A DNA stretch of 64,000 nt from Myxococcales bacterium (GTDB taxonomy: Bacteria > Myxococcota_A > Polyangia > Palsa-1104): NCBI GenBank assembly GCA_003170275.1, contig PNAM01000015.1:53546-117545 (forward strand), written 5' to 3'. The notes beneath the pieces are model-generated. The model searched no databases. It had not been told where the DNA came from and worked only from the letters and a program-made list of their open reading frames with translations. Position 1 is the stretch's first letter. The number at the start of each line of letters is the position of its first letter. Below, one piece after another: positions 3,392-57,437 of the stretch. Made by a program: the position numbers and the translations under genes.

Positions 3392-3393
3392 AC

Positions 3394-3409
3394 AGCAAGG
3401 TGCGCGCCA
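3394..3409 (-). promoter_or_regulatory. candidate sigma54 (-24/-12) promoter for the RND operon
   Basis: Minus strand reads TGGCGC-GCACC-TTGCT (consensus TGGCAC-N5-TTGCW, GG-N10-GC spacing kept). It sits in the divergent gap between the adaptor gene and the HK/NtrC pair. It overlaps the first ATG of the ORF, so a downstream start would be used. Confidence 0.45.
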
Positions 3410-4925
3410 CCCGCAACCCCGCGCCCGGAGCGGGCCTCGCGCCCTCCACCTGTTCGCCAGACGAACACCTGTCCGGATCCAGAACGCCTGCTCGCGCCGA
3501 TGCCCCCGCCGTGCATGGATGCGCTCGGGTCCGGGTCTTGCTACGCTCGACGCACGTGCCGAAGACGCCTGCCATCCGCCAGCGGCTCTTGTACATCGCG
3601 CTGCTCGGCGTGGTCACCTCCGCGCTATCGCTGGTGGCGCTGGTGCGCGCGCTCACCTTCACCGCCGCGCAGCGGGTCGAGCGCGCGCGCGATGCGCTCA
3701 CCGGCGAGCTCGATCGGTTGGCGCGCCTGCCGCCGTCGGGCGAAGCGCTCGCGGGACCGCCCGCCACCACCTATATCGGCCTGCGCGGCGGTTGGGTGGA
3801 CAACTCGGGCCAGCTCGGCTCGCTCCCGGGGCTGCCCGACTCCTGGCGCGGCCCGCTCGCGCATACATTAATGGAGGCGGCGCAGAAGCAGGGTCGCGTG
3901 GTGAGCGAGACCGAGCTGGGGTCCTCGCCCCTGCTGCTGGCCGTCGATCCGGTGGCGAACGGCTTCGCGTGGACCGGCTACCACGTGCTGCCGTCGGCCT
4001 ACCTGAAGCCGTGGCGCTGGATCGCCTTCGGCCTGGCCGGCGCCACCGCGCTCCTGGTGGCGACCGCGCTGTGGGGCTCGTTCTCGTTCCGCCGCAACGC
4101 CAACGCGCTGCACGCGACCCTGGTCGCGCTGGGAAAAGATCTGACGGCCGAGGTCGCGCAGCCCGGCGCCGGCGAGCTGACCGGCATCGCCGACGGCATC
4201 CGCCGCATGGCGGCCGATCTGCTCGCCTCGCGCGACGCGACCGAGCGGTTGCAGCGCGAGCTGGCGCAGAAGGATCGCTTGGCCGCGCTCGGCCGGGTCG
4301 CCGCCGGCGTGGCCCACGAGGTGCGCAACCCGCTCGCCTCGATCAAGCTACGCCTCGATCTGGCCGCCGCCAGCAACACGCTGCCGGTCGCCGCGATGGA
4401 GGCGGTGGTGGGCGCCTCGCAGGAGATCGCGCGGCTGGATCGGCTGGTCGCCGACCTGCTGCTGGTCGCCGGCCAAAAAATGGGACCGCGCCGCGAGGTC
4501 GAGCTCGGCGCGTTGTTGCGAGCGCGCGCGGAGGCGCTCGCGCCGTGGGCCGCGGCGCGCGGGATCGCGGTGCGCACCGCCGGCGAAGGGATCGCCGACG
4601 CCGACGTCGAGTCGGTGGCGCGCGCGTTCGACAACGTGCTGCGCAACGCGGTCGAGGCCTCACCGCCCGACGGCACCGTCGAGGCGCAGGTGTTCAAGAC
4701 CGCGGGTAGCGTGGAGGTGCGCGTGGAAGATCGCGGCCGCGGCGTCGAGCCGGCGCGCGAGAGCGAGCTGTTCGAGCCGTTCTTCACCACCAAGCCCGAA
4801 GGCACGGGCCTCGGCCTGGCCATCTCGCGCGCCATCGCCCGCGCGCACGGCGGCGAGCTCACCTACGCGCGCGCCGGTGCGGTCACGCGCTTCTCGCTCT
4901 CGCTGCCGTCGCGCGGAGCCGCGGC

Positions 4926-4929
<4 letters not shown>
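3400..4929 (+). CDS. sensor histidine kinase (2 TM, HAMP, HisKA, HATPase_c)
   Basis: H-box AAGVAHEVRNPLASIKL; ATPase motifs NVLRNAVEAS and GTGLGLAISRAIARAHGG. True start is probably downstream (GTG/TTG candidates around 3500-3560, before TM1 LLYIALLGVVTSALSLVALV). Confidence 0.85.
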
Positions 4930-6275
<1,346 letters not shown>

Positions 6276-6314
6276 CTCAGGGCGACCGATTTGCCACAGT
6301 GGTACGATGGCGCC

Positions 6315-7445
6315 ATGGGGAAACCGGCGGTCTTGGCGGTGGGGTTGTGCGTCCTCGGCGCGTGCTCGTCGTCGGTGCCCGACTACCCTTCGTATGTCGC
6401 GGCGGCTGACCGGGCGATCTGCCAGCACCAGATCGACTGCGGCTTCCTCGATCCGGCGTACGAGAAGGACTGCGAGCAGCAGTTCGCTTCGTTCCAGGGA
6501 TCGAACGCGACGATTCAAGCAACCTACGACCCGGCGGCGGGCGACGCCTGTCTCGCCACGCTGCGCGGCGCGCTCGACGGATTCGGCTGCCGCGCGCTGC
6601 TGCTCAACGATCTGTCGATCAGCGCGGCGATGGCGATGGCCTGCGCGAACGCCCTGACCGGCAAGGTTCAGACCGGTGGGACGTGTCGCGCGAGCGCGGA
6701 GTGTGCCGGACACGGGACCTGCGTGATCACGTTCGCGAACAACCTGTGCACGAGCGCGTGCGTAGCGCCGGCCCCAGTCGGGCAGAGCTGCGGCGGCTCC
6801 AACGATTGCGTCGACGGTGCCGTTTGCCAGTTCGCCGCGTTGGGACCCACCTGCGTTTCCATCGGAGACGTGGGCGCCGCGTGCTCGCCGGCCGACGGCA
6901 CCGGGGACTGCAAGCCGGGCCTGGCCTGCGCGCCGTCGGCGGATCGCAAGAGCGCGAGCTGCAGCGCGCCGCTCGCGGCCGGGGCGCCGTGCGAAGCGAG
7001 CCCGGAGGCGCGCGGCTCGTGCGGCGGCGAGCTGATCTGCGATCTGTTGCTGACGAGCCCGGTGTGCGCGCCGGAGAAACAGCTCGGCGAGCCGTGCGGC
7101 TCGACCGACGCCTGCGGCCCACACCTGCTGTGCACCTCGTCGGCCGCGGCCACCGCGACCTGCCTGGCGCCCATCCCGCTCGGCGGAGCCTGCGTGGGAG
7201 CGAACCAGGACGCGGCCTGCCTGGCGCCGCACCGGTGCGTCAACGGAGTCTGCTCCGCCCCGCCGACGATCGGTCAGCCCTGCCCCGACGGCGCTTGCCT
7301 CGAGGGCTTCTGCGACGCGACCAAGGTGTGCCACGCGGCGATCGCCGTCGGCGGCGCGTGCGACCCGACCGTCACCGGCCTGTTCCAGTGCCAGGATGGC
7401 GCCACCTGCGACATGACGACCAAGACCTGCAAGCTGTGCATGTAG
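6315..7445 (+). CDS. secreted cysteine-rich repeat lipoprotein
   Basis: Signal/lipobox MGKPAVLAVGLCVLGAC. More than 40 Cys in repeated C-x-C spacing (GTCxxxxxCxxxxxC units), resembling myxobacterial Cys-rich repeat proteins. Confidence 0.7.
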   Translation: MGKPAVLAVGLCVLGACSSSVPDYPSYVAAADRAICQHQIDCGFLDPAYEKDCEQQFASFQGSNATIQATYDPAAGDACLATLRGALDGFGCRALLLNDLSISAAMAMACANALTGKVQTGGTCRASAECAGHGTCVITFANNLCTSACVAPAPVGQSCGGSNDCVDGAVCQFAALGPTCVSIGDVGAACSPADGTGDCKPGLACAPSADRKSASCSAPLAAGAPCEASPEARGSCGGELICDLLLTSPVCAPEKQLGEPCGSTDACGPHLLCTSSAAATATCLAPIPLGGACVGANQDAACLAPHRCVNGVCSAPPTIGQPCPDGACLEGFCDATKVCHAAIAVGGACDPTVTGLFQCQDGATCDMTTKTCKLCM

Positions 7446-7551
7446 CCCGCTCGATCGCGCAGCCTGCGAGGCTACAAGCTTCCGCAGCGTCCTGTCCTTC
7501 ATCAACCTCGGGCGCGTTTGCAAGGCTTGGACCTTCTGCGAGAATGCAACG

Positions 7552-10260
7552 ATGCCGACGGGCTGTCTGACCGAAGACCAAGTCGCCCGGTTCGTCGAGC
7601 ACGCGGTCGACGACGCCGAGCGGCAGCGCATCGGCGCGCACGTGGACCAGTGCGAGGAGTGTCGCCGCCTGGTGGGCGCGGCTGCGGCGGTGTTTTTGTC
7701 GATGACGCTGCCCGCCGCCGGCCCGCCGGTCGACACCGGTGGCTTGCCCGCCGGCGTTCGCCTGGGCCGTTACGTGGTGCTCGAACGCCTCGGCGCCGGC
7801 GCGATGGGCGTGGTCTATTCCGCCTACGATCCGGAGCTCGATCGCCGCGTCGCCGTGAAGCTGGTGCGCGCGGAGGCGGAGCGCGGCGAGTCCTCGGCCG
7901 GCGCGCGCGGCCGGCTCCTGACCGAGGCGCAGACCGTCGCGCGCCTCAACCATCCGAGCGTGATCACCGTCTACGACGTGGGCACGGTCGGCGACCGCGT
8001 GTTCATCGCCATGGAGTTGGTCGACGGGGGCACCCTCGCCGCCTGGCGCGCCGAACGACCGCGCTCGCGCGGCGAGATCCTCGAGCTGTTCCTGCGCGCC
8101 GGTGAAGGCCTCGCCGCCGCGCACGACGCCGGCGTGGTGCACCGCGACTTCAAGCCGGACAACGTGCTGGTCGGCAAGGACGGACGCCTGCGCGTGACCG
8201 ACTTCGGCCTCGCGCGCGCCGCGAAGCCCGGCGCCAACGCGGTTCCCACCGTCGAGATCGTCGGCACGCCGGCCTATATGTCGCCCGAGCAGTTCCGCGG
8301 CGAGCCGGCCGACGCGCGCGCCGATCAGTTCGCCTTCTGCGTGGCGCTGTGGGAGGCGCTGGCCGGCAGCCGGCCGTATCACGGGACCTCCTCAGCGGCG
8401 CTGCAGCAGGCGAGCGGCACCGGCCGGCCCGACGAGCCGCCGGCGGGCTCGGCGCTGCCGTTGTGGATCAAGCGGATTCTGCTGCGCGGCCTGCGCCCCG
8501 CCGCGGAGGAGCGGTTTCCCACCATGCGCGCCCTGCTCGCCGCGTTGCGCGCCGATCCGCGCCAACGGTTGCGTCGTCTGGCGACGGTGCTCGCGATCGC
8601 CGCGGCGATGGTGGCGGTCGGCCTGGCCTGGCGCGGCAGCCGTCAGTCCGCGGGCGCGGTCTGTCGAGGCGCGGCCGCGCAGCTCGCCGGCGTGTGGGAC
8701 GCGTCTCGCCGCGCGGCGCTCAGCGCCCGGTTCGCGCAGACCTCGCTGGCCTACGCGAGCACCAGCGCGGCCGCGGTCGCCGATGCGCTCGACGCGCGCG
8801 CACGCGCCTGGCAAACCATCTCGACCGATTCGTGCGAAGCGACCCGCGTGCGCCGCGACCAGACCGAGGACATGATGCAACGTCGCGCGGTGTGCCTGGA
8901 CGGCCGCAGAAAGGAGCTGCGCGCGCTCACCGATCTGCTCCTCGACGCCGACGCCGCGCTGGTCGAACGCGCCGGCCAGTCGGTCGCCGGCCTGACTCCG
9001 CTCGACGGCTGCTCGGATCTGCGCGCGCTCACCGCTCGCGTGCGTCCGCCGCAAGATCCGGCCATAGCCGCGCGCGTCGACGTGGTGACCGGCAAGATCG
9101 CCCGCGCTCGTGCGCTCCACCTCGCCGGCCGCTACGAACCGGCGCGCAAGGCCGCCAAGGAGGCGCTCGCCGAAGCGCGCGGCATCGCCTATGCGCCGCT
9201 CACCGCCGAGGCCGCCTACCTGTACGGCCAGATCACCCTGCAGCTCGGCCAGACGGCCGAGGCCGAAGCGCACCTGGTCGAAGCGTTGATGTTGGCCGAA
9301 CGCGGCGGCGACGACGAGTGGGCGGCGTGGGCGGCCAACGGCCTGGCCACGCTCAAGGGCAACCTCGGCGACGCCGCCAAGGAAGCGTTGGTGTACAGCC
9401 GCTTCGCCGAGGCTGCGCTCGACCGGCTGGGCGGCGACGAGACCGTCCTGGCGGGTCTGCTCGACAACCGCGCGATCATCTTGCTGCGCGCCGGTCAGCT
9501 CGACGAGGCCGCCGCCGCGGGAGAGAAAGCGAACCTGTTGTGCCGCAAGCACGAGGGCGCCGACTCGCTGAACGTGGTTCAGTCCGACGTCGATCTCGCG
9601 GACATCTACGCGGGCCAGGGCCGCGTCGAGCTGGCGCGCCAACGCACCGCGCACGCGCTCGACGTGCAGGTCCGCCTGCTCGGCGAAGATCATCCCGACA
9701 CCAACACCGCGCGCGTCAACCTCGGTGGCCTGCTGGTGATGCTGGGCCGATTCGCCGAAGCGCAGCCGCTCCTCGAACGCGGTGTCGCCCAGCGCGAGAG
9801 GCAGCTCGGGGCCGATCACCCGTGGACCGCGACCGCTCTCATCAACCTCGGCGAGGCCAAGGCGGGGCTCGGCGATCCCGAGGGGTCGACGCGCCTCAAC
9901 CGCCGCGCGCTGGTGATCCTGGAAGGCGCCGCCGGCAAGACCAGCCCGCTCTTGTGCGAGCCGCTGGTGAACCTGGCGCGCGACGCCGCCCGGCGCAACC
10001 AGCCGGCCGAGGCCCAGGCGCTGCTCGAGCGCGCGCTGGCGATCCACGCCGCCGCGAAATCCTCCGCCACCGAAGCCGCGCCCGCCCGCTTCGAGCTGGC
10101 CAAGCTCACCCGCGACCCGGCGCGCGCCGAGTCACTCGCCCGCCAGGCCGCCGCCGCCTGGCGCGAAGCCGAGCATCACTGGGGCGGCGAAAACGGCGCA
10201 CGCGTCACCGAGATCGAGAGCTGGCTGGCCAAGCGCCCCGCACCGGCGCGCGAGCGCTAG
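7552..10260 (+). CDS. Ser/Thr protein kinase with N-terminal zinc-finger-like motif, TM segment and C-terminal TPR array
   Basis: Kinase motifs GAGAMGVVY, VAVKL, HRDFKPDNVL, DFGLA, GTPAYMSPE. HVDQCEECRRL resembles an anti-sigma zf-HC2. Long TPR-like C-terminal half. Confidence 0.92.
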   Translation: MPTGCLTEDQVARFVEHAVDDAERQRIGAHVDQCEECRRLVGAAAAVFLSMTLPAAGPPVDTGGLPAGVRLGRYVVLERLGAGAMGVVYSAYDPELDRRVAVKLVRAEAERGESSAGARGRLLTEAQTVARLNHPSVITVYDVGTVGDRVFIAMELVDGGTLAAWRAERPRSRGEILELFLRAGEGLAAAHDAGVVHRDFKPDNVLVGKDGRLRVTDFGLARAAKPGANAVPTVEIVGTPAYMSPEQFRGEPADARADQFAFCVALWEALAGSRPYHGTSSAALQQASGTGRPDEPPAGSALPLWIKRILLRGLRPAAEERFPTMRALLAALRADPRQRLRRLATVLAIAAAMVAVGLAWRGSRQSAGAVCRGAAAQLAGVWDASRRAALSARFAQTSLAYASTSAAAVADALDARARAWQTISTDSCEATRVRRDQTEDMMQRRAVCLDGRRKELRALTDLLLDADAALVERAGQSVAGLTPLDGCSDLRALTARVRPPQDPAIAARVDVVTGKIARARALHLAGRYEPARKAAKEALAEARGIAYAPLTAEAAYLYGQITLQLGQTAEAEAHLVEALMLAERGGDDEWAAWAANGLATLKGNLGDAAKEALVYSRFAEAALDRLGGDETVLAGLLDNRAIILLRAGQLDEAAAAGEKANLLCRKHEGADSLNVVQSDVDLADIYAGQGRVELARQRTAHALDVQVRLLGEDHPDTNTARVNLGGLLVMLGRFAEAQPLLERGVAQRERQLGADHPWTATALINLGEAKAGLGDPEGSTRLNRRALVILEGAAGKTSPLLCEPLVNLARDAARRNQPAEAQALLERALAIHAAAKSSATEAAPARFELAKLTRDPARAESLARQAAAAWREAEHHWGGENGARVTEIESWLAKRPAPARER

Positions 10261-28620: not shown

Positions 28621-29190
28621 ATGCGCGGAACCTTCCTTGCTTTGTGCTTCCTCGCGGCCTGTGGCACCAACGGCGTACCGGCACCGGACGATCTCGGCGG
28701 CCAGGCAGGCGCCGATCTCACCGGCGCACCACCGGCTGATCTGCTCCAACCCGTCGACCTCACCTCCGGGCACACGCTCATGTGCGGCAACATGGTGTGC
28801 ACCGGTACCAAGCACTGCTGCGTGACCCAGAGCGCCGGCATGTCGGTGCCCGGCTGCACCACCTCGTGCCCCGACGGAGGGCTCTCGATCGAGTGCGGCG
28901 GCACCGAGGACTGCGGCGGCAATCCGTGCTGCCTCAAGCTCGCCGGCGGCGCGGCGCAGAGCACCACCTGCGAGAGCGCGCCGAGCGGCTGCGATCCGAT
29001 GTTCACGCTCGCCGGCGGCGGCGCCTCCGGACAGACGCGGCTGTGCCACACCTCCACCGACTGCACCGCCGGCGACGCGCAGACCCAGTATCCCGACTGC
29101 TGCGTGGCCATGATGCAGGGCGCGTCGCAGAAGATCTGTTTCAACAAGCAGCTGGTCGGCCTGACCAGCGGCGCGATCACCTGCCCGTAG
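28621..29190 (+). CDS. secreted cysteine-rich lipoprotein
   Basis: MRGTFLALCFLAACG lipobox; 20+ Cys (CGNMVCTGTKHCC.., CGGTEDCGGNPCC..). Confidence 0.65.
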   Translation: MRGTFLALCFLAACGTNGVPAPDDLGGQAGADLTGAPPADLLQPVDLTSGHTLMCGNMVCTGTKHCCVTQSAGMSVPGCTTSCPDGGLSIECGGTEDCGGNPCCLKLAGGAAQSTTCESAPSGCDPMFTLAGGGASGQTRLCHTSTDCTAGDAQTQYPDCCVAMMQGASQKICFNKQLVGLTSGAITCP

Positions 29191-29203: not shown

Positions 29204-29920
29204 ATGGGTCACGCGACCGAAACCCTCGAACGAGCGGAGCACGCCGCCCACGCCGGACACGGAGGGCACGAGCCCGCCGGGCGGTTGACGATGTGGGTCG
29301 GGATCACCATGGCCACCCTCGGCGTGCTGTTGGCGTTCGCCGCGGCCAAGGTGGGCGGCGAGCGCACCGAGCTGGTCAAGGCGCTGGTCGATCAGCAGCA
29401 CGCGCACGCCAAGTATCAGGCGCAGGACATCAAGCATCGCGCCGCGGTGCTCAGCCTGCGGCAGCTGCACGCCACCGCCGCGGGCGAAAAGGTCGACGCC
29501 AAGGACATGCTCGCGCTGGCGACCTCCGTCGAGCGTTACTACGCCGAGTCGCAGGCGGCCAACGAGTGGGTCGATTCGTACGATCCGGTGATCCGCGCGC
29601 ACACCGACGGGCAGGAGGAGTACGAGCGCGCCCAGCTGGCCGCCGAGTTCGGCATCGTCGTCGCGTCGATCGCGTTGCTCTTGCGGCGGCGCGCGCCGTG
29701 GTTCGTGGCGCTCGCGCTCGGGATGGTCGCGGTCGGCATCCTGGGCGGCACCTGGCGGCACGTGGGCCACATCGTCCACCAGGCCGAGGCCAAGATCGAA
29801 GAGACCGGCAAGGCCTACCGCGAGCTGCGCGACTCGGGCAAGACCACCGAGGCCGACGACGCGCTGGTGGCCGAGGTGCGCGCCGCCTACGGGGCGCCCA
29901 AGCCGAAGGCGACGCCGTAG
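29204..29920 (+). CDS. DUF4337-like membrane protein
   Basis: His-rich N-terminus, then WVGITMATLGVLLAFAAAKVGGERTELVKALVDQQHAHAKYQAQDIKH and two C-terminal TM helices. Family assignment is from memory of DUF4337 architecture. Confidence 0.6.
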   Translation: MGHATETLERAEHAAHAGHGGHEPAGRLTMWVGITMATLGVLLAFAAAKVGGERTELVKALVDQQHAHAKYQAQDIKHRAAVLSLRQLHATAAGEKVDAKDMLALATSVERYYAESQAANEWVDSYDPVIRAHTDGQEEYERAQLAAEFGIVVASIALLLRRRAPWFVALALGMVAVGILGGTWRHVGHIVHQAEAKIEETGKAYRELRDSGKTTEADDALVAEVRAAYGAPKPKATP

Positions 29921-30877
29921 CTACGCGACGATGAAGTAGAGCGTGGCCAGGTAGACCGCGGGAAACAGGATCGAGCAATAGAAGTCGAGCTGCTTCTGGA
30001 TCCCTTCCTTGCCGTGCGCGAACAGCGTCAGCGCGGCGATGGTCACCGCCACCGACGCGACGATGATCGCGAGCGTGAGCATGATCAGCTTATCCGCCAT
30101 GGTCACCGCGTTGGTGTCGGGCAGCGAGTTGTTGATCGCCACCGTCACCGCCGCCGCCGCGAAGGTCGCGCCCATGCCCAGGCTCACGCGCGGGCTCGAC
30201 TCCTTGGGCCGCACGTAGAACGCGCACCACGAGATCAGCACCGAGATGAACAGGCCGAAGAACACCTTGAGGAACCGGCCGTAGCCCGGGCGCGCGACGT
30301 CCACCGAGAACAGGTAGCGCGAGTAGGCGGACTCCTTGTTCGACGGCAGCGACGTGTCGCCGTAGTTGGTGTGGTAGACCTGCCGCATCACCTCGGCGCG
30401 GCTGCGCGCGACCACCCACCCGGGCACCTGCAGCTCCGGGCTGACGCCGGTGTTGTCGGCATCGGGCTGGTAGACCACCGTGCGATCGTCCTGCTCCGAG
30501 TCCTCGATCTCCAGGGTCAGCGTGTGGCTGTCGAGCGGGAAGCGGCGCAGGTCCCAGAACTTGGTCATGGTCGCGAGCACGCGGCAGGCGGCGTAATTCT
30601 GGCTGCCGAGCTTCTTCTTCTGGATTCCGCTCTTGGAGGTGATGCGCCCGTTGGCCAGCTCGAACGTCTCGAGCGGCTTGAGGTCGTCGCCCTCCCAGCG
30701 AAACCAGACGTAGAAGTCGACCGCGAAGCTGTTGTTCTTGATGTCGATGCCGGTCACATGATTGAGGTAGGTCCCGACCACCACCTTGCGCGGCGCGTCG
30801 GCGTGCGCGGCGCTCCCGCGCGTCAACGCGATCACCAGGCAGACCAGCGCGATCGCAACCAGCGGGTGCCTGCGCAT
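29921..30877 (-). CDS. prokaryotic pentameric ligand-gated ion channel homolog (pLGIC, GLIC/ELIC family), paralog 1
   Basis: Signal peptide plus beta-rich ectodomain. VVVGTYLNHVTGIDIKNNSFAVDFYVWFRWEGDDL and FWDLRRFPLDSHTLTLEIED match GLIC VNTGIYLIECYSLDDKAETFKVNAFLSLSWKDRRL and LDFRRYPFDSQTLHIYL. Four TM helices (M1-M4). ATGA overlap with the upstream paralog. Confidence 0.88.
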   Translation of the reverse strand: MRRHPLVAIALVCLVIALTRGSAAHADAPRKVVVGTYLNHVTGIDIKNNSFAVDFYVWFRWEGDDLKPLETFELANGRITSKSGIQKKKLGSQNYAACRVLATMTKFWDLRRFPLDSHTLTLEIEDSEQDDRTVVYQPDADNTGVSPELQVPGWVVARSRAEVMRQVYHTNYGDTSLPSNKESAYSRYLFSVDVARPGYGRFLKVFFGLFISVLISWCAFYVRPKESSPRVSLGMGATFAAAAVTVAINNSLPDTNAVTMADKLIMLTLAIIVASVAVTIAALTLFAHGKEGIQKQLDFYCSILFPAVYLATLYFIVA

Positions 30878-31962
30878 CAGCGCGCCCTCAAGACGGTCAA
30901 GGCGAGGATGCCGAAGTAGGCGGAGCTGCACAAAACGAGCCCCCAGCGGTCGATCTTGCGCGCGGTCTCGGGCCGCTCCTTGTGCACGTAGCGATTGGCG
31001 GCGATGCAACAGAAGGTGACCGCCAGGATGATCACGTAGCTGAGGATGTAGATCTTGTCGAGCAGCAAGAGCGAGCCGGTGGGCGGCAGCTCCGTCGCTG
31101 CGGTGAACTGCAGCGCGACCGCGGAGATGAGCGCGGTGATGGTCAGGCACAGCCGGGCGTCGATGTCCTGCGCCTGGCAGAAGAAGGCGCCAAACGTGAT
31201 CAGGATGATGATCGCGATCGGGATCACCGTCTTCGAGACGATGCCGACCACCGGCCGCTCGATGTGCACCGTGAAGTCGACCCGCGAGTAGCTCTCGCCG
31301 CTCGCGCCGGACCGCGGATCGCCGAAGGTGGTGGCGAACTGCGAGCGCCCCATCTCGGGGTGCATCTTGCTCAGGCTCCAGCCTGGGATCGAGAGGTCCG
31401 GCCGCATCGCGCTGCCCTTCCAGTCGACCTCGTGCACCAGCCGCGCCACCGGATGCTTGGCGTCCTCGATGGAGATCACGATGTCGTGGTCGTCGAACGG
31501 ATAGCGGGCGAGCGGGAACGGATGGCCGAACCGGCCGTAGACGTGAAAGCACTGCAGCCGCCGCCCATCGGGCAGCACCTCGGCCACGGCGTTGCCGCTC
31601 GCGTCGGCGTAGATCGGCGTCCTCGACAGATCCCCGACGCTGACCGCGTTGGTGAGCTGATAGGTGAGCGTCGGATCGATGTCGCCCTTCCACAGGAACC
31701 ACAGATAGAACTCGGCGTTGAACGAGTTCGACTTGACGTCGATCTCCGGAATGTTCTGTAGGTACAGCCCCACCGTGATGGTCTGCGGGCCCTTCTTGTC
31801 GCCCGAAGCAGGATCGACCGGCCCGCGGTTCGCCGCCGGGATCGGCGCCACCAGCTTGTCGGGCCCCTCGGCGCGAACCCCCGCGCGCGCCCCGAGGAGC
31901 AGCGCGAGGCCGAGCGCCGGCACGAGCAGGATCAGCCGGCCGATGGAGGAGCGCCTCTTCAC
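30877..31962 (-). CDS. prokaryotic pentameric ligand-gated ion channel homolog (pLGIC), paralog 2
   Basis: GTG start at 31962 (VKRRSSIGRLILLVPALGL..). ITVGLYLQNIPEIDVKSNSFNAEFYLWFLWKGDIDP and PLARYPFDDHDIVISIEDA. Four TM helices. TAGTG overlap with the upstream beta-helix gene. Confidence 0.87.
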   Translation of the reverse strand: MKRRSSIGRLILLVPALGLALLLGARAGVRAEGPDKLVAPIPAANRGPVDPASGDKKGPQTITVGLYLQNIPEIDVKSNSFNAEFYLWFLWKGDIDPTLTYQLTNAVSVGDLSRTPIYADASGNAVAEVLPDGRRLQCFHVYGRFGHPFPLARYPFDDHDIVISIEDAKHPVARLVHEVDWKGSAMRPDLSIPGWSLSKMHPEMGRSQFATTFGDPRSGASGESYSRVDFTVHIERPVVGIVSKTVIPIAIIILITFGAFFCQAQDIDARLCLTITALISAVALQFTAATELPPTGSLLLLDKIYILSYVIILAVTFCCIAANRYVHKERPETARKIDRWGLVLCSSAYFGILALTVLRAR

Positions 31963-33665
31963 TACTTCAGCTCGTGCGCACCGATGTCGAAGGCGGCGCC
32001 GAGAGGTCGGTGATTGCCGAAGAAGTCGTGATCCGGGAAGCCGACCGCCATCGGCACCTTGTCGACGCAGCACGCGGTGTTGAGCGCGCTGGTCGGATCG
32101 AGCTTGTACTCGCCGCCCAGGATGAACGACGGATCGAGCGCGACGTCGCCGGCGAACGCGGTCTGGTCGGAGCCGACGACCACGTTCGTGCGCATGCAGC
32201 CGCCGTTGAAGGTCTGGCCACCCGCCATCGGGTTGTGCCAGATGATCGAGGACTCGATCGCGACGTTGCCGCCGTTGCACTCGATGCCCTCCGGGTTGCC
32301 GACTACGGTGTTGAAGCGGAAGGTGCCCCCGGGCGAGTTCAAGATCGCGCCGGCGTTTCCGAAATTGACGACCAGGTAGTTGTTGATCAGGCTCCAGGCG
32401 CCGGCCTCGATGAACACGCCGCCCGACTGGTTGCCCGAGATGTAGTTGCTCTCGAGCGTCAGGTTCCCCGGGTCGTTGTCGAACACGCCCCAGCCGGAGG
32501 TGCCGTCGGTCGCGACCACCCGGTTGTCGGAGATGCGGTTGTTCAACAGGTGCGCCGTGCCGGTGCCGAGCTTCACGCCTCCCGCGGTGTTGTTGACGAT
32601 GTCGTTGGCGATCAGGTCGATGTTGCAGTTGCCCGCGAGCACGCCGAAGGCGTTCAGCGGCGCGCTGGTCACTTGCGAGTTCTTCACCACCAGCGTCTGT
32701 GCGGCGCCGCCCGTGCAGACCACCGAGCCAATGAAGTTCAGCCCGTCGATCGTGAGCGTGACCGAGGTCGTCGCCGCGAACGTGAGCGCGACCGAGGCGC
32801 CGCCCGGCGGCTGGATCGTCGCGTAGTTGCTGATGCCGGCGATGCCGGGCCCGACGATGGTCGCGGCGCGCGCGACGGTGACCGGGGTGTAGAGGCCGTC
32901 GTGCACCAGGATGAACGGCTGGGTGCCCGCGACGGCCGGCGGCAGATCGCAGAATGGCGTGGCCGGTGACAGCCCGTCGTGCGTGCCGGTCGATGGGCAA
33001 CCCGCCGCGCCGCTGTTGACGTAGGCGATGTTCGAGACCGGCACGCAGCTCCCGTCGCTCGCGCACACGCCCGCCGGGCACTCCGAGTGCGTCTTGCACG
33101 CCCGGCACGCGCCCGCGACCGGATCGCAGATCGGCGTGGCGACGTTGTGGATCTGGCACTGGTCATCGTCGCTCGCGCTGGCGCACGCGCGGCAGGTCGA
33201 GCTGGCGCAGATCGGCGTCGAGTCCGCGCACGTCGCGGAGGTCGCGCAACCTGCCGCATCCGCGCCGCCGCCGTCGCCGCCGTCGCCCGTGCCGAGATCC
33301 ATTCCACCGCCGCCGCCGAGCTCGAGCGCGATGGTCGCGCTGGCGCCCGCCACGATGGTGGTCTGCCCGTCGTCGCTGCCCACCGTCGCGCCCGTCGAGC
33401 TCAACGCGTCGACGTGCACCGAGAGCACGCCGCTGATCTCGGGCGAGACCTCGATGCTGAAGCTGTGCGTGGGCGGAAAGGTGTGCACCGCGAGCAGGAC
33501 GCTGAACGGTTTGGTCTGGCCGCCGGCGGTGGCGGTGCAGCGCAGGCTGGCCACGTCGGCGAGCGGCGCGTTCGAATCGACCGTGACCACCACCAGCGAG
33601 CCGGTGCCGCCGCCGCAGCCGGCGACCAAGAGGGAACAGAGCGCGAGTTGGAGAGAGCGCATCAT
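31962..33665 (-). CDS. right-handed parallel beta-helix repeat lipoprotein with Cys-rich neck
   Basis: MMRSLQLALCSLLVAGCGG lipobox. Cys-rich segment (CATSATCADSTPICASSTCRACASASDDDQC..). Then repeated beta-helix rungs (NNRISDNRVV.., SNYISGNQSGGVFIE.., NNYLVVNFGNAG.., NTVVGNPEGIECNGGNVAIESSIIWHN). Confidence 0.8.
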   Translation of the reverse strand: MMRSLQLALCSLLVAGCGGGTGSLVVVTVDSNAPLADVASLRCTATAGGQTKPFSVLLAVHTFPPTHSFSIEVSPEISGVLSVHVDALSSTGATVGSDDGQTTIVAGASATIALELGGGGGMDLGTGDGGDGGGADAAGCATSATCADSTPICASSTCRACASASDDDQCQIHNVATPICDPVAGACRACKTHSECPAGVCASDGSCVPVSNIAYVNSGAAGCPSTGTHDGLSPATPFCDLPPAVAGTQPFILVHDGLYTPVTVARAATIVGPGIAGISNYATIQPPGGASVALTFAATTSVTLTIDGLNFIGSVVCTGGAAQTLVVKNSQVTSAPLNAFGVLAGNCNIDLIANDIVNNTAGGVKLGTGTAHLLNNRISDNRVVATDGTSGWGVFDNDPGNLTLESNYISGNQSGGVFIEAGAWSLINNYLVVNFGNAGAILNSPGGTFRFNTVVGNPEGIECNGGNVAIESSIIWHNPMAGGQTFNGGCMRTNVVVGSDQTAFAGDVALDPSFILGGEYKLDPTSALNTACCVDKVPMAVGFPDHDFFGNHRPLGAAFDIGAHELK

Positions 33666-33670
33666 TTTCA

Positions 33671-34309
33671 CTAGAACCGAAAGGTTCCGTCGGTGGGCAT
33701 CGACGACGGGAACGATGGCGAGCGCGCCGCGCCCACCCCGACCCCGACGCCCACGCCGATTCCCACTGCCACCACCGCGACTGCGGTCCACAGCCACCAC
33801 TTCTTGTAGATCGGCGTCGCGCGCCGCTCGGCGGGCCGCGCCACCACCACCGGCGTCTCGACCCCCACCGGCGCCGGCGTCACCTCCTGCACCGGCGGCG
33901 GCTCGCGCCGGCGCGGCGCGTTCGGATCGAGCGTGCCCTGCGGCGGCCGGCTGTTCGCGACCTGCTCCATCTTGATCGCCTCCTCGAGGCTGACGATCAG
34001 CTTCTCCACGTCCTCGCGCTGATCCTGATTGGTGGCCTCGCGCAAGAACGATCGATACGCCTGCACCGCCTCGACCTTCTGCCCGAGCGACCGATGGCAC
34101 TGCCCGATGTTGAACAGAAACGACGGGTCCTCGTAGTTGCGGTACGCGTCCTTGAAGGCCGCGAGCGCCTCGGAATATTCGCTCAAGTTGTAGTGCTGGA
34201 TCCCGAGCCGGTAGGCCTCGCGCGCCTTGTCCTTGTTCTTCGCCTGCGCAGGGGCCGCCGCAAGCAGCACCAGCCCAATCACCGCCCCCAGCAGTAATTT
34301 CATCCCCAC
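33671..34309 (-). CDS. TPR-repeat protein with signal peptide and C-terminal KKWWLWT + (G-V)n anchor
   Basis: MGMKLLLGAVIGLVLLAAAPAQA; TPR (AREAYRLGIQHYNLSEYSEALAAFKDAY..LFNIGQCHRSLGQKVEAVQAYRSFL). Tail IYKKWWLWTAVAVVAVGIGVGVGVGVG. Stop lies 5 nt before the next gene start. Confidence 0.8.
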   Translation of the reverse strand: MGMKLLLGAVIGLVLLAAAPAQAKNKDKAREAYRLGIQHYNLSEYSEALAAFKDAYRNYEDPSFLFNIGQCHRSLGQKVEAVQAYRSFLREATNQDQREDVEKLIVSLEEAIKMEQVANSRPPQGTLDPNAPRRREPPPVQEVTPAPVGVETPVVVARPAERRATPIYKKWWLWTAVAVVAVGIGVGVGVGVGAARSPSFPSSMPTDGTFRF

Positions 34310-34475: not shown

Positions 34476-35396
34476 ATGGGGACCGTCGGCCGCTTGACCG
34501 GGTTCTCGCCGGCGCTCTTGCGCGCGTGGGAGAGCCGTCACCGCCTGCTGTCGCCGCATCGTGGAACCGGTGGACAACGGCTCTACAGCGATGACGACGT
34601 GCAGGTGCTGCGGGCCGTCCGCGCGCTGCTCGATGAGGGGCGGTCGATCGGCGAGATCGCGCTTTTGGGTCGGAAGACGCTCCTCGCGCGCACGCCCTCG
34701 CTGGTGCAGGCGGTGGTCAAGCAGGTGCGCCTGGAGCTCACGCTCGACTGGACGCTCGACGGTGGCAACGCCGCCGCGGCCGTGCGCTCGATGCACGCGG
34801 CCTCGCTCGCGGCGACGCGGTTGGCCGCCCGGCTGGACTTGAAGCAGCTGGTCGAGCTGGTGGTCGAGACGCTCGACGCCGATTTCGACGCCGCGCTGGC
34901 GCGCATCTGGATCCTCGAGCCGGGCGAAAACGCGCTCTACCTGCGGGCGAGCGCCGGGCTGTCGCGCCGGACCTCCACCAGCCCGAGGGCGCGAATCGAT
35001 CTCGCAAACTATCCCTATAAGGTGGGCGTCGTGGCGCGCTCGCGCACGCCGTTCGTCTGCAACGGCCTTGACGGCGATCCCCATTTCGAGCAGCCCTGGG
35101 TCAAGCGCGAGCAGCTGGCCTCGGTGGCGATCTTGCCGCTGGTCGCCGAGGGTGCGCTGCACGGCGTGCTCGCGACCTTCTTCCGGCAGCCCTTGAGCGA
35201 GGACGTGGTGGGCGCGCTCGGCACCTTCGCGTCGATGACCGCCAGCGCGATCGCCGCTCACGCCGCCGGGTCTGGCAGCCCCCCGAGGCGGCGCTGCAGC
35301 TCCATCCGCTTTTCGACTTCCTTGAACAGCGCGAGCTCCTCGTCGCTCTGGCATTCGAGCGCCGGCATGCGGGCATCCTCGTCGAGCGGCGCGTAG
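34476..35396 (+). CDS. MerR-family HTH + GAF-domain regulator
   Basis: MGTVGRLTGFSPALLRAWESRHRLLSPHRGTGGQRLYSDDDVQVLRAVRALLDEGRSIGEI (MerR HTH). GAF-like LARIWILEPGENALYLRASAGLS...VAILPLVAEGALHGVLATFF. The last ~45 codons are Ser/Arg-rich and overlap the convergent thioesterase gene, so the 3' end is doubtful. Confidence 0.7.
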   Translation: MGTVGRLTGFSPALLRAWESRHRLLSPHRGTGGQRLYSDDDVQVLRAVRALLDEGRSIGEIALLGRKTLLARTPSLVQAVVKQVRLELTLDWTLDGGNAAAAVRSMHAASLAATRLAARLDLKQLVELVVETLDADFDAALARIWILEPGENALYLRASAGLSRRTSTSPRARIDLANYPYKVGVVARSRTPFVCNGLDGDPHFEQPWVKREQLASVAILPLVAEGALHGVLATFFRQPLSEDVVGALGTFASMTASAIAAHAAGSGSPPRRRCSSIRFSTSLNSASSSSLWHSSAGMRASSSSGA

Positions 35397-54872: not shown

Positions 54873-55034
54873 ATGAGTACATCACAGCCCCAGGCTCGCG
54901 TCGAGTTGCTCGAGCGCGCCGCCCGGTGCGTCCGCGCCCTAGTGGAAGCGATCGAGGGCCGATCGCCCGTGCCACCCTCAGATCTGCTCTACGCCGCTCG
55001 CGAGCTGCTCGCCGATCTGCAGGCGGTGCGCTGA
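54873..55034 (+). CDS. 53-aa hypothetical protein coupled to the integrase gene
   Basis: Below the ORF-track size cutoff. My translation: MSTSQPQARVELLERAARCVRALVEAIEGRSPVPPSDLLYAARELLADLQAVR. GAGAGGAG RBS. TGATG overlap with the integrase start. Confidence 0.45.
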   Translation: MSTSQPQARVELLERAARCVRALVEAIEGRSPVPPSDLLYAARELLADLQAVR

Positions 55035-56179
55035 TGGCGAGCGTTTTCAAGCGGGGCAGCAAGAGCCGGCCGCGCTGGTACGTCCAGTTCAAGGGCGCGG
55101 ACGGCAAGTGGAAGATGGAGCCGACCGACGCCGCGACGAAAGCCGAAGCGTGGGTGATCGCCGAGCAACGCCAGGCCGACGTGCGGGCCGGCAAGCCCGA
55201 CCCGCGGAACGCGCCGACGTGCGGTGCGCTCATGCCCGTGTGGCTTGACTCGCTGGTGAACAGAAACAAGAAGGGCGATCGCTACACTGCGGAAAAGCAC
55301 CTGCTGCCCGCCTTCAAGGACCGGAAGCCACGGGAGATCGAGCACACCGATATCGTGCAGTGGCTCGATCGCCTCAAGACTGGCGAGCACCCCCTTGCGG
55401 GTGGAACGCAACGCAGCTGCCTCAACCTGCTCTCTCGCTTCTTCGGATGGGCCATGGCCCGCGGTCACGCGAAGATCAACCCGGTGCGCCAGTTGCCCAA
55501 GGGCGAGCGCCCGCGCCAAGCGCCCAAATCGCAGGACGCGCCGTGGATCAAAGACGACGCGGTCGCGCTGGCGATCGCCGCTGCGCTCCCCTCCCCCTTC
55601 GGCCTGATGTACTTCATAGGGAATCGGTGCGGGATGCGCCCCGGTGAGGTCTTTGGGCTGCGCGTGTCCGACTTGGCCGAGCTCGAGCACGGTCGGGTGC
55701 GCGTCCGCTACTCAGAAGCGGGGCCGCTCAAGGAGGACGATGGCCGGGGCGAGGCCAAGGTGAAGTGGGCGCCCGCGCCGCCCGACACTCAGCTCGCGCT
55801 CGCGTCCTGGCTGGCAAAGCGTAAGTCGGAGGAGGCGCAGCTCGAGGACTACCTGTTCGACGCGCCCAAGCCGAAGCGTGGGAAGGGCTGGGGGTTCTAC
55901 ACGAAGATGCAGCGCAGCCGCGCCTGGCGAGCGCTGGCCAAGACGCTACGCGGCGAGATGACTTGGTACGAGGCGAGCCGGCACAGCTTCGCCAGCCGCC
56001 ACCTAGAGGCAGGCGCGCCGCTCGAGGAAGTGAGTGGCGCCCTGGGTCACTCGACGCCAGCGGTCACGTTGCGCCACTATTCCCGCTTCGTCCGCAAGAC
56101 CTACTCGCCTGCGATGCTCGGCGGGCTCAAGCTCACCGACGCGAAGGTGATCCCGTTCGTGAAAACGAAGACAGGCTAA
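55034..56179 (+). CDS. tyrosine recombinase / phage integrase
   Basis: N-terminus MASVFKRGSKSRPRWYVQFKGADGKW (arm-binding type). Catalytic region GMRPGEVFGLRVSDL, SRHSFASRHLEAGAPLEEVSGALGHSTPAVTLRHYSRF (R..HxxR..H..Y). Adjacent to the tRNA-Glu att site. Confidence 0.93.
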   Translation: MASVFKRGSKSRPRWYVQFKGADGKWKMEPTDAATKAEAWVIAEQRQADVRAGKPDPRNAPTCGALMPVWLDSLVNRNKKGDRYTAEKHLLPAFKDRKPREIEHTDIVQWLDRLKTGEHPLAGGTQRSCLNLLSRFFGWAMARGHAKINPVRQLPKGERPRQAPKSQDAPWIKDDAVALAIAAALPSPFGLMYFIGNRCGMRPGEVFGLRVSDLAELEHGRVRVRYSEAGPLKEDDGRGEAKVKWAPAPPDTQLALASWLAKRKSEEAQLEDYLFDAPKPKRGKGWGFYTKMQRSRAWRALAKTLRGEMTWYEASRHSFASRHLEAGAPLEEVSGALGHSTPAVTLRHYSRFVRKTYSPAMLGGLKLTDAKVIPFVKTKTG

Positions 56180-56233
56180 GCCCGCATGGCAAGCATGAAA
56201 CGGCACCGTCCTCACCTCATCCACACCAGCCGC

Positions 56234-56521
56234 TCAGCTTTTCGTGTTCGGCACGTCGGACTGACGTTGCGCCTCGATGGCCTGACGGGTGATTTCATTG
56301 AAGCTCGCATCCGTGAACCACGTCTTCCCCGAAGGCAAAATCACCTCGTCGCCAAGAAGCCGCCACACGTGCGCTGAGACGGATAGCAGGGTCCACACCA
56401 CGTTCAGCGCATCTTGCAGCTTGTACGGCGACTTCATCACCCCAGCCACGTGCTCCGACACTAGCCGCTGCAGCGACTCATCGAAGTCGAAGGCGAATTC
56501 CTTGGGCGGTGGATCGCTCAT
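56234..56521 (-). CDS. hypothetical 95-aa protein (only minus-strand gene in the element; lower GC)
   Basis: ORF between the integrase and the att site; no domain recognised; visibly less GC-rich than the rest of the element. Confidence 0.45.
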   Translation of the reverse strand: MSDPPPKEFAFDFDESLQRLVSEHVAGVMKSPYKLQDALNVVWTLLSVSAHVWRLLGDEVILPSGKTWFTDASFNEITRQAIEAQRQSDVPNTKS

Positions 56522-56545
56522 GCGGGCAATCGGGTTTGCTGCAAA

Positions 56546-56556
56546 ATCTACTGCAA
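56546..56556 (+). repeat. third copy of the ATCTACTGCAA motif
   Basis: Same orientation as the tandem copies at 45841..45864. Partial look-alikes sit nearby (TTTGCTGCAA 56535..56544, CATCTACGAG 56565..56574). Confidence 0.55.
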
Positions 56557-56584
56557 TGAGTGGACATCTACGAGCTAACTACTA

Positions 56585-56626
56585 GCGACCCCGACGGGAT
56601 TTGAACCCGTGTTACCGACGTGAAAG
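56585..56626 (-). repeat. right att repeat (inside the intact tRNA-Glu)
   Basis: 42 nt identical to 45671..45712. Confidence 0.9.
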
Positions 56627-56659
56627 GCCGGTGTCCTAGGCCAGCTGGACGACGGGGTC
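56586..56659 (-). tRNA. tRNA-Glu(UUC): tRNA-Glu (anticodon UUC), no encoded CCA
   Basis: Minus strand GACCCCGTCGTCCAGCTGGCCTAGGACACCGGCCTTTCACGTCGGTAACACGGGTTCAAATCCCGTCGGGGTCG. 7-bp acceptor stem, anticodon loop CTTTCAC, T-loop GGTTCAAATCC. Close to E. coli tRNA-Glu. Followed by CTA rather than CCA. Confidence 0.92.
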
Positions 56660-56710
56660 TAGATGGCCCGACGTAATTGCCTCACGGCGCAACGGAAGTC
56701 AAGGCGCTCG

Positions 56711-56739
56711 TTGACGATCTGCGGGGCGCGTGTTATCGA
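56711..56739 (+). promoter_or_regulatory. possible promoter of tRNA-Lys
   Basis: TTGACG (56711..56716) - 17 nt - TATCGA (56734..56739), about 14 nt before the tRNA 5' end. The -10 is weak. Confidence 0.3.
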
Positions 56740-56752
56740 ACACGACACTCTC

Positions 56753-56825
56753 GGGCCCGTAGCTCAGCCGGTAGAGCAGCGGCCTTTTAAGCCGTTGGTC
56801 GTGAGTTCAAATCTCACCGGGCTCA
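56753..56825 (+). tRNA. tRNA-Lys(UUU): tRNA-Lys (anticodon UUU), no encoded CCA
   Basis: GGGCCCGTAGCTCAGCCGGTAGAGCAGCGGCCTTTTAAGCCGTTGGTCGTGAGTTCAAATCTCACCGGGCTCA. Cloverleaf with anticodon loop CTTTTAA and T-loop GTTCAAATC. Confidence 0.92.
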
Positions 56826-56834
56826 CTAGAAGCA

Positions 56835-57437
56835 TCAGTTGCACGTGACGCTCGTGCAGGTCCCGGTTCCTCCTCCGCCGCTGCAGTTCACGATGCACGT
56901 TCCGGACGAACACTCGCTCTGGACGACGGTCGTTGCCAGGCAGCCCAGGGTCATCGTGTTGCACGTGCCGCATCGGAAGAAGCACGTGAACGTCGCTGTG
57001 TTGCACGCGTAGTGACCGCAGCTGATTCGCGTCTGCGCCGGACACGCGGCGCGGGCGGATTCGCGGGCGGCTCTTCGACAGGCGCCGGCACCTGGTTGGG
57101 CGGCCCCGCGACACGCTCCTTCTGGGCGATCCCGGCGATTGCGCGGGTCGGCGCTCGAGCGCAAAAAGGTCCGATAGAAATAGAGCGCGCGCTCGTGGTG
57201 CTCCGCGAGCCGGTGCGCCTGCGCGAGGTTGTAGAGGAAGACCGGATCGGGCGGCAGCCGAGAGGCCGCTTCGAACTCTTCGATCGCCTGCGGATATTCC
57301 TGCAAGTTGAAGTGGGCCAGCCCGCTGTCGTAGTGCCGCTTGATCTCCTGAACCGCGGGATCGTCGCTGGGTCGCGCGTACGCCGGCGACGCGAGCCACA
57401 CGATCAGCGATGCCAGGATCAAGCCACGCGTACCCAC
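56835..57437 (-). CDS. TPR protein (paralog of 33671..34309) with Cys/Thr-rich C-terminal tail; possible frame disruption in the linker
   Basis: Signal peptide plus TPR (IKRHYDSGLAHFNLQEYPQAIEEFEAA..LYNLAQAHRLAEHHERALYFYRTFL). The tail CGHYACNTATFTCFFRCGTCNTMTLGCLATTVVQSECSSGTCIVNCSGGGGTGTCTSVTCN has high third-position GC. The linker reads better in another frame (see findings). Confidence 0.55.
   Translation of the reverse strand: MGTRGLILASLIVWLASPAYARPSDDPAVQEIKRHYDSGLAHFNLQEYPQAIEEFEAASRLPPDPVFLYNLAQAHRLAEHHERALYFYRTFLRSSADPRNRRDRPEGACRGAAQPGAGACRRAARESARAACPAQTRISCGHYACNTATFTCFFRCGTCNTMTLGCLATTVVQSECSSGTCIVNCSGGGGTGTCTSVTCN

Follow-up and report, generated by a model that had tools for sequence, protein, structure and literature searches.

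The bacterial pLGICs (pentameric ligand-gated ion channels) serve as the main structural models for the animal receptors, and the prokaryotic members studied, GLIC, ELIC, sTeLIC and DeCLIC, are to our knowledge all homopentamers encoded by single genes. This includes GLIC, the proton-gated channel of Gloeobacter violaceus, which is the best structural match to both genes described here and is found among their top sequence matches. Animal pLGICs readily form heteromers. The present study concerns a stretch of 64,000 nucleotides from a Myxococcales bacterium (GenBank assembly GCA_003170275.1, contig PNAM01000015.1, positions 53,546 to 117,545 of the forward strand; hereafter the window), in which an earlier reading of the DNA letters (the original prediction) had pointed out two tandem pLGIC genes, here named A and B, and raised the possibility of a bacterial heteropentameric channel. 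The homopentamer as the known bacterial state, from which that idea departed, agrees with Tasneem 2005 (PMC549065), the only paper found to address stoichiometry in bacteria, where bacterial pLGICs were inferred to be homopentameric since most genomes hold one copy, and heteromers and operons are not discussed in Jaiteh 2016. Full-text literature searches, with most subscription-journal papers outside their reach, turned up neither a bacterial heteromeric pLGIC nor a tandem pLGIC operon.

Comparison with related loci revealed that B and A, in that order, form a conserved and putatively translationally coupled bicistron, inherited together in one bacterial clade, and this two-gene module, not the cluster of four genes in which it lies in the window, is proposed as the functional unit. 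The parts of the module are as follows.

29921-30877, minus strand: pLGIC subunit A, ATG start, 318 aa; predicted signal peptide, periplasmic beta-sandwich domain and four transmembrane (TM) helices
30877-31962, minus strand: pLGIC subunit B, GTG start, 361 aa; predicted signal peptide, beta-sandwich domain and four TM helices
30875-30889, minus strand: B/A coupling junction, a Shine-Dalgarno (SD)-like GAGGG at 30889-30885 together with TGATG

The starts of both genes, and of the two genes C and D upstream of them, were re-derived from the list of open reading frames (ORFs). The junction between B and A reads cgc TGATG cgc, the TGA stop of B (30879-30877) and the ATG start of A (30877-30875) overlapping by 1 nt, and not ATGA as given in the original prediction, although ATGA does occur in orthologous pairs. 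Within the final codons of B, 8-12 nt upstream of the start of A, lies the SD-like GAGGG, an arrangement indicating that ribosomes ending on B would restart on A. Identical copies of the B-A locus were found on independent metagenome contigs.

Judged by sequence, motifs and predicted fold, A and B are both complete and genuine pLGIC subunits, and in both a signal peptide for Sec export, a ligand-binding beta-sandwich domain in the periplasm and four TM helices are predicted, with no intracellular domain; B in addition has a disordered, Pro/Ala-rich leader of ~30 residues after the signal peptide. When run with phmmer against all PDB sequences only pLGICs were returned (GLIC, ELIC, DeCLIC, sTeLIC and GABA-A/Gly chimeras), A matching 223 sequences at E<=1 (best 2.9e-11; GLIC, ELIC and DeCLIC 3e-11 to 4e-9) and B 286 sequences (best 7.2e-14; GLIC and GLIC chimeras 7e-14 to 1e-11), with the alignment of B spanning residues 57-355, from the first beta-strand through M4. 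The AlphaFold2 models (predicted local distance difference test 85.2 for A and 79.5 for B) were analysed with DSSP, giving for A ten strands in residues 30-195 and helices at 199-221, 227-251, 260-287 and 291-317, and for B strands between 60 and 235 and helices at 238-261, 269-289, 299-327 and 331-360. Foldseek searches of the PDB placed GLIC first for both models (A, E 2.4e-20, TM 0.75-0.77; B, E 6.6e-20, TMt 0.76) and all of the top 50 matches were pLGICs, so the identity proposed for the two channel genes in the original prediction holds, as do the four TM helices in each.

The tip of the beta6-beta7 loop carries [F/Y]PxD, a motif that marks the pLGICs (Jaiteh 2016), as F113-P114-L-D116 (FPLD) in A and Y154-P155-F-D157 (YPFD) in B. 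Further hallmarks are the pre-M1 Arg (R196 in A, R236 in B), the 0' Arg (R230, R270) and the Leu-Pro at 22'-23' (L252-P253, L292-P293), and these together with the Pro-loop motif are invariant or nearly so across the subfamilies of A and of B. The ectodomain blocks that the original prediction had quoted are likewise present, as FAVDFYVWFRW and RRFPLDSH in A and as FNAEFYLWFLW and ARYPFDDH in B.

A search with the Neur_chan profiles, as the original prediction proposed, gave matches under the Pfam cut-offs only (Neur_chan_memb 20.7 and 16.3 bits against 28.1, Neur_chan_LBD 16.6 against 26), and the hidden Markov models (HMMs) of NCBIfam scored under their trusted cut-offs as well (LGIC_1 41.7 and 50.9 against 500, TIGR00860 47.9 and 45.7 against 280). 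This is the reason why the proteins are labelled 'hypothetical' in the sources, but it is an operational matter and no contradiction of the evidence from fold and motifs; the NCBIfam E-values (A, TIGR00860 7.8e-13 and LGIC_1 9.2e-11; B, LGIC_1 1.4e-13) uphold the pLGIC identity together with the sequence and structure matches in the PDB.

Compared with GLIC (~317 aa) both proteins are of similar size, lack an N-terminal accessory domain, carry the Pro-loop motif and the pre-M1 Arg, and have a very short link between M3 and M4, three residues in both models, whereas identity in the structural alignment is only 18-19%. ELIC, sTeLIC and DeCLIC belong to the same superfamily (E 1e-9 to 1e-10) and are likewise periplasm-facing channels of Gram-negative bacteria, but the large N-terminal domains of DeCLIC are absent from A and B, which form a superclade of their own.

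To place the two genes, the A profile was scanned against one genome per GTDB species (344 loci matched, the best 80 of which were fetched) and the B profile against JGI metagenomes (at least 469 stretches matched, the best 80 fetched), after which all pLGIC ORFs in the fetched loci were classed with both the A and the B HMM and a neighbour-joining tree was built. A-type and B-type sequences, 87 of each, were reciprocally monophyletic, and scores across the two families (~150-240 bits) were much higher than those to the solved structures (~45 bits), which places A and B as sister subfamilies of one unannotated superclade. The two proteins share 27% identity over 323 columns (E 3e-40); in agreement with the original prediction, which called them clearly diverged, this identity and the reciprocal monophyly argue that they are not recent duplicates, and a recent tandem duplication is ruled out.

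In most lineages each subfamily is represented by a lone gene (at least 150 loci). Solitary A was found in Thermoanaerobaculia, WOR-3, Nitrospira, Planctomycetota, Verrucomicrobiota, Azospirillum, Roseateles and Piscinibacter, and solitary B on dozens of metagenome contigs with flanks of 8 kb. The superclade as a whole takes in hundreds of loci in at least eight phyla, labelled 'hypothetical protein' by the sources, and among the prokaryotic pLGICs it appears to be a large branch without annotation.

The B-A pair is kept only in a Myxococcota-centred clade consisting of Myxococcales, Kofleriaceae and 'Deltaproteobacteria' metagenome-assembled genomes, where the two genes are adjacent at 14 loci, namely in the window and at L004, L005, L008, L009, L084-L090, L166 and L168. 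A deeper pair (L042; 48% identity for B and 45% for A) has a gap of ~40 nt, and at L164 and L165 the gene order is B-X-A, with a gene here called X in between. Among 22 informative loci of the clade both genes are present at 16 (the 14 adjacent pairs, L042 and L164), A only at three and B only at three. The pair thus recurs at 15 loci besides the window, while relatives with one paralog and no partner genes, which the original prediction had named as counter-evidence, make up 6 of the 22.

Stop and start codons overlap (ATGA or TGATG) in 12 of the 13 pairs examined, L042 being one of the 13, and the overlap is accompanied by an SD-like GAG(G/A)G in the C-terminal codons of B, 9-12 nt upstream. 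Since L166 and L168 overlap as well, the overlap is present at 13 of the 14 adjacent loci. Taken as a genomic proxy for joint expression of A and B, the same strand together with overlap and embedded SD is seen in 13 of 14 adjacent pairs, and both features are kept across pairs at 57-100% identity for A and 59-100% for B. Inside the paired clade the subtree of A has the same branching order as that of B, which points to a long co-inheritance. When analysing the flanks it was found that the neighbouring genes differ at every pair locus, the gene upstream of B usually being an unrelated one; the adjacency is therefore not mere local synteny and it is the pair itself that has been retained. Its recurrence with the overlap is far beyond chance.

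The residues of the pore and of the ligand site were then compared between the two subunits, with the M2 register set from HMMER alignments to GABA-A/GLIC chimeras. In A the M2 positions read S-2', P-1', R0', S2', G6', F9', A13' and V16', and in B they read D-2', A-1', R0', C2', T6', I9', A13' and F16'. With its acidic -2' and Ala -1' B resembles GLIC, and because of this Asp it is predicted to be cation-selective, whereas A differs from GLIC in having no acidic -2' residue and in its pore rings of Gly6' and Phe9', which are invariant in the A subfamily. Among the distant solitary A genes 55 of 70 have Asp at -2', and the whole 28-member clade that holds the paired A has Ser or Gly there, solitary Thermoanaerobaculia included.

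At ancestral columns, defined as those in which the majority residue is the same in the solitary genes of both subfamilies, the changes in the extracellular domain (ECD) are essentially in paired B (D84E, Y136L, R140H, L156F, Y177H and Y209F), with one further column changed in both proteins, and the pore changes are in paired A (-2' D to S, 8' L to T and 12' V to A). By transitive alignment His140 of B and Arg99 of A are the equivalents of GLIC Arg105, a residue on the complementary face of the orthosteric pocket that makes ligand contacts (PMC7336382). A thus keeps Arg at this position together with the conserved tyrosines, and in B these residues are replaced (R to H, Y to L and Y to F).

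The G+C content of the window is 65-74%, and the remaining genes around the pair are the following.

31962-33665, minus strand: lipoprotein C, ATG start, 567 aa; lipobox LVAGC, Cys-rich stretch and right-handed beta-helix
33671-34309, minus strand: TPR protein D, GTG start, 212 aa; first gene of the local four-gene cluster
34476-35396, plus strand: MerR-HTH and GAF regulator, divergent from D; Pfam MerR_1 5.6e-15, GAF_2 1.8e-13
29204-29920, plus strand: DUF4337 membrane protein, 238 aa, His-rich N-terminus; Pfam DUF4337 2.4e-16; convergent with A, 0-nt gap

Much of what the original prediction said of this arrangement was borne out. The four minus-strand genes are tightly packed, with a 5-nt gap between D and C (33666-33670) and a TAGTG in which the TAG stop of C and the GTG start of B overlap by 1 nt at 31962; D has an N-terminal signal peptide, TPR repeats (Pfam TPR_16/TPR_1/TPR_2, E 2e-8 to 3e-7) and, as membrane anchor, a C-terminal Gly/Val-rich TM segment; C is a beta-helix lipoprotein with a Cys-rich region (Pfam Beta_helix, E 1.2e-7, and a weak NCBIfam match to choice_anch_Q, 5.6e-4); and the divergent MerR-GAF regulator is found where it was placed. 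A scan for promoters and terminators was uninformative, since it returned no promoter at all and its terminators were no more than background.

As an operon of four genes the arrangement is peculiar to this organism. A tblastn search of ~165 loci found no homolog of C or D beside any other pair or beside solitary A or B, the only matches to C being L001-L003, which are copies of the window locus, and the MerR-GAF gene had no homolog at any other fetched locus, the ~20 related loci included. Both the TPR and beta-helix genes as conserved partners and the MerR-GAF gene as a conserved regulator were accordingly dropped.

The only neighbour co-conserved with the pLGIC genes is the DUF4337 gene, which adjoins one or both of them at L004, L005, L008, L009, L011, L086, L088, L090, L168 and L170. 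It is kept where only B remains (L170) or together with A (L011) and has moved to the opposite side at L004. The His-rich N-terminus of its protein is conserved, and the protein may be an auxiliary partner or component of the channel. Neither tblastn nor an HMM built from the clade found the association outside the core clade, an NCBIfam search gave no match to the protein, and no literature on the function of DUF4337 was found.

In a deeper lineage of lower G+C content it is gene X that is located directly 3' of B.

L164, 8990-9733: gene X, directly after B
L165, 2098-2841: gene X, directly after B
L093, 872-1603: gene X, directly after B
L171, 5984-6763: gene X, directly after B

X encodes 247-259 aa ending with Phe, resembles a small beta-barrel of the outer membrane and has no match in Pfam or NCBIfam; at L164 it overlaps A by 4 nt. 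At L166 a complete cheW-mcp-cheA-cheR-cheB cluster (1382-7737) on the same strand ends 264 nt before B (pair at 8001-10057), a single case that echoes the chemosensory role proposed for bacterial pLGICs by Tasneem 2005 (PMC549065).

Clustering of the ORFs within 4 kb of the pLGIC genes at ~160 loci revealed no universal neighbour hinting at the ligand, and only synteny at the genus level, namely that of the solitary A-type gene of Azospirillum, located directly downstream of type VI secretion genes (IcmF/TssM-like, ImpA/TssA and Hcp) at L046 (3518-9354) and at 15-19 other loci, mostly of Azospirillum.

The reading that we tentatively favour, giving it slightly less than an even chance, is that A and B co-assemble, at least facultatively, into heteropentamers. 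The two subunits would enter the inner membrane next to each other, and because A keeps the ligand-site residues and B keeps Asp at -2', a mixed pentamer could combine A-type binding interfaces with a charge ring supplied by B; by analogy with GLIC, ELIC and DeCLIC its default role would be that of a periplasmic sensor of small molecules, ions or pH which changes the membrane potential. The more specific proposal, in which the pair is the first prokaryotic heteropentameric pLGIC with A giving the ancestral ligand interfaces and B the acidic selectivity ring, is put forward with a little less confidence again. Co-assembly is favoured by a conserved overlap that comes with an embedded SD, by a pair that persists while its flanks are shuffled and by congruent trees, and also by the apparently complementary divergence, with ECD changes in B and pore changes in A. 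Among homo-oligomeric membrane proteins, paralogs that are encoded in tandem and translationally coupled commonly assemble into hetero-oligomers, as in the Fluc/CrcB pairs, the SMR pairs (EbrAB, YdgEF) and the heterodimeric ABC half-transporters, all adjacent and often overlapping paralogs in families whose default state is a homo-oligomer. These have unrelated folds and are typically obligate, paired-type singletons not being seen, while singletons of A and B do occur. The heteromeric Cys-loop receptors of animals (nAChR, GABA-A, GlyR alpha/beta and 5-HT3A/B) offer another parallel, with different paralogs as subunits that could join in one pentamer, the canonical binding-site residues being kept in one and changed in the other, and mixed-charge rings possible at the cytoplasmic mouth of the pore. 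Co-assembly is, however, proven in animals and proposed for A and B, which have neither the Cys-loop disulfide nor an intracellular domain, are more divergent (27%), would be co-expressed by way of an operon and translational coupling, and both also occur alone in relatives.

Nearly as likely as the heteropentamer, if itself somewhat doubtful, is that A and B make two separate homopentamers, A5 and B5, co-expressed from one operon for the same response. These might differ in ligand and/or selectivity, B being cationic with its Asp-2' and A, with Ser-Pro-Arg at -2' to 0', having no acidic ring; the pattern in which A keeps the binding site and B the charge ring may fit a division of labour in a heteromer, but it fits two channels with different ligands and selectivities equally well. 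Several observations weigh against co-assembly, and a number of them also speak for two homopentamers. Both subfamilies are solitary in most phyla and are therefore each competent to form homomers, both proteins keep all superfamily hallmarks with neither showing degenerate ones, their ligand-site and selectivity-filter residues differ, and an identity of 27% is lower than that of the animal subunits known to co-assemble; receptors encoded as tandem paralogs, the methyl-accepting chemotaxis proteins for example, usually act independently. Inside the paired clade, where solitary calls rest on 5-10 kb around each gene, A lacks an adjacent B at L006, L007 and L167 (A 64-73% identical), B has no A within 5 kb at L169 (74% identical) and L170 (67%), and L171 carries B-X without A. 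That paired-type B never stands without A, as a first tree had suggested, was shown by these last three targeted look-ups to be false, so that paired-type subunits do occur without their partner within 5-10 kb and an obligate heteromer is not indicated. Solitary A is carried by JAEUKC01, JADJMO01 and a contig of ERZ26165376, and solitary B by JGI 3300045256 Ga0484956_0000407 and ERZ26871208 contig_58997. The solitary copies keep the derived residues of the paired ones with no obvious change of rate, no reversion being seen, and at L164 another gene separates B from A. The loss of Asp-2' from A, considered as a signature of pairing, is common to solitary relatives in Thermoanaerobaculia, Sandaracinaceae and Akkermansiaceae and is thus not tied to it, and the residue comparison as a whole is exploratory, small and made without phylogenetic correction. 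What speaks against separate homopentamers is that the conserved overlap with embedded SD constrains the genes more tightly than co-regulation by itself would require, that the pair persists while all other neighbours change, and that the trees of A and B are congruent. Moreover, the lone A found at L006/L007 and the lone B at L169 are both nearest to the L087/L088 subclade, with similar G+C content, as expected of a split but still complete pair, and are compatible with one lineage having its pair divided over two loci. Chance juxtaposition or recent tandem duplication without functional coupling is very improbable; compact operons of high G+C content commonly have overlapping genes, yet the reciprocal monophyly, with A and B each closer to solitary genes of other phyla than to its neighbour, and the recurrence of order, orientation and overlap at no fewer than 14 independent loci with unrelated flanks already contradict it. 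Improbable too, though less extremely so, is the suggestion of the original prediction that D and C, as TPR protein and beta-helix lipoprotein, present a ligand to the channel or scaffold it in a four-protein periplasmic or surface complex. The genes are packed here, one junction being a gap of 5 nt and the other two overlaps of 1 nt, C and D are predicted to be exported or membrane-anchored, and operonic binding proteins for some bacterial pLGICs were noted by Tasneem 2005 (PMC549065), but C and D are not co-conserved with the channel genes, which leaves the idea without support outside this organism, each relative has different genes upstream of B, and TPR-anchor proteins are multi-copy in this genome. 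As a conserved system the four-protein complex is largely refuted.

Elsewhere in the window a 189-aa Cys-rich predicted lipoprotein (28621-29190, plus strand) lies just past the DUF4337 gene; it has no family match and is not conserved in the related loci. Further away a phage-type integrase (54926-56179, plus strand) adjoins tRNA-Glu (56585-56659, minus strand) and tRNA-Lys (56753-56826, plus strand), followed by a D-like TPR paralog (56835-57437, minus strand) whose C-terminal half looks frameshifted. This region (54926-57437) may mark where a genomic island has its edge and appears unrelated to the pLGIC locus.

The B-A pair hints that bacteria, too, may have two-subunit pLGICs as in animal neurons. 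Homomeric models cannot represent the non-equivalent interfaces, the fixed stoichiometry and the assembly order of nAChR and GABA-A, the features of greatest importance for their pharmacology, and the pair, being small and without an intracellular domain, makes heteromery in bacteria directly testable. To channel biologists the finding is of moderate to high interest; if the proposed heteromer is real, the pair would be a tractable minimal heteromer, and heteromery would not be an animal invention but would have arisen at least once outside the animals. Even if A and B are separate channels, a large unannotated pLGIC superclade has been exposed, with the invariant Gly6' and Phe9' pore rings of its A subfamily as an unusual feature and with members in the culturable Azospirillum, Roseateles and Piscinibacter, of which Azospirillum is a possible experimental host for the A subfamily.

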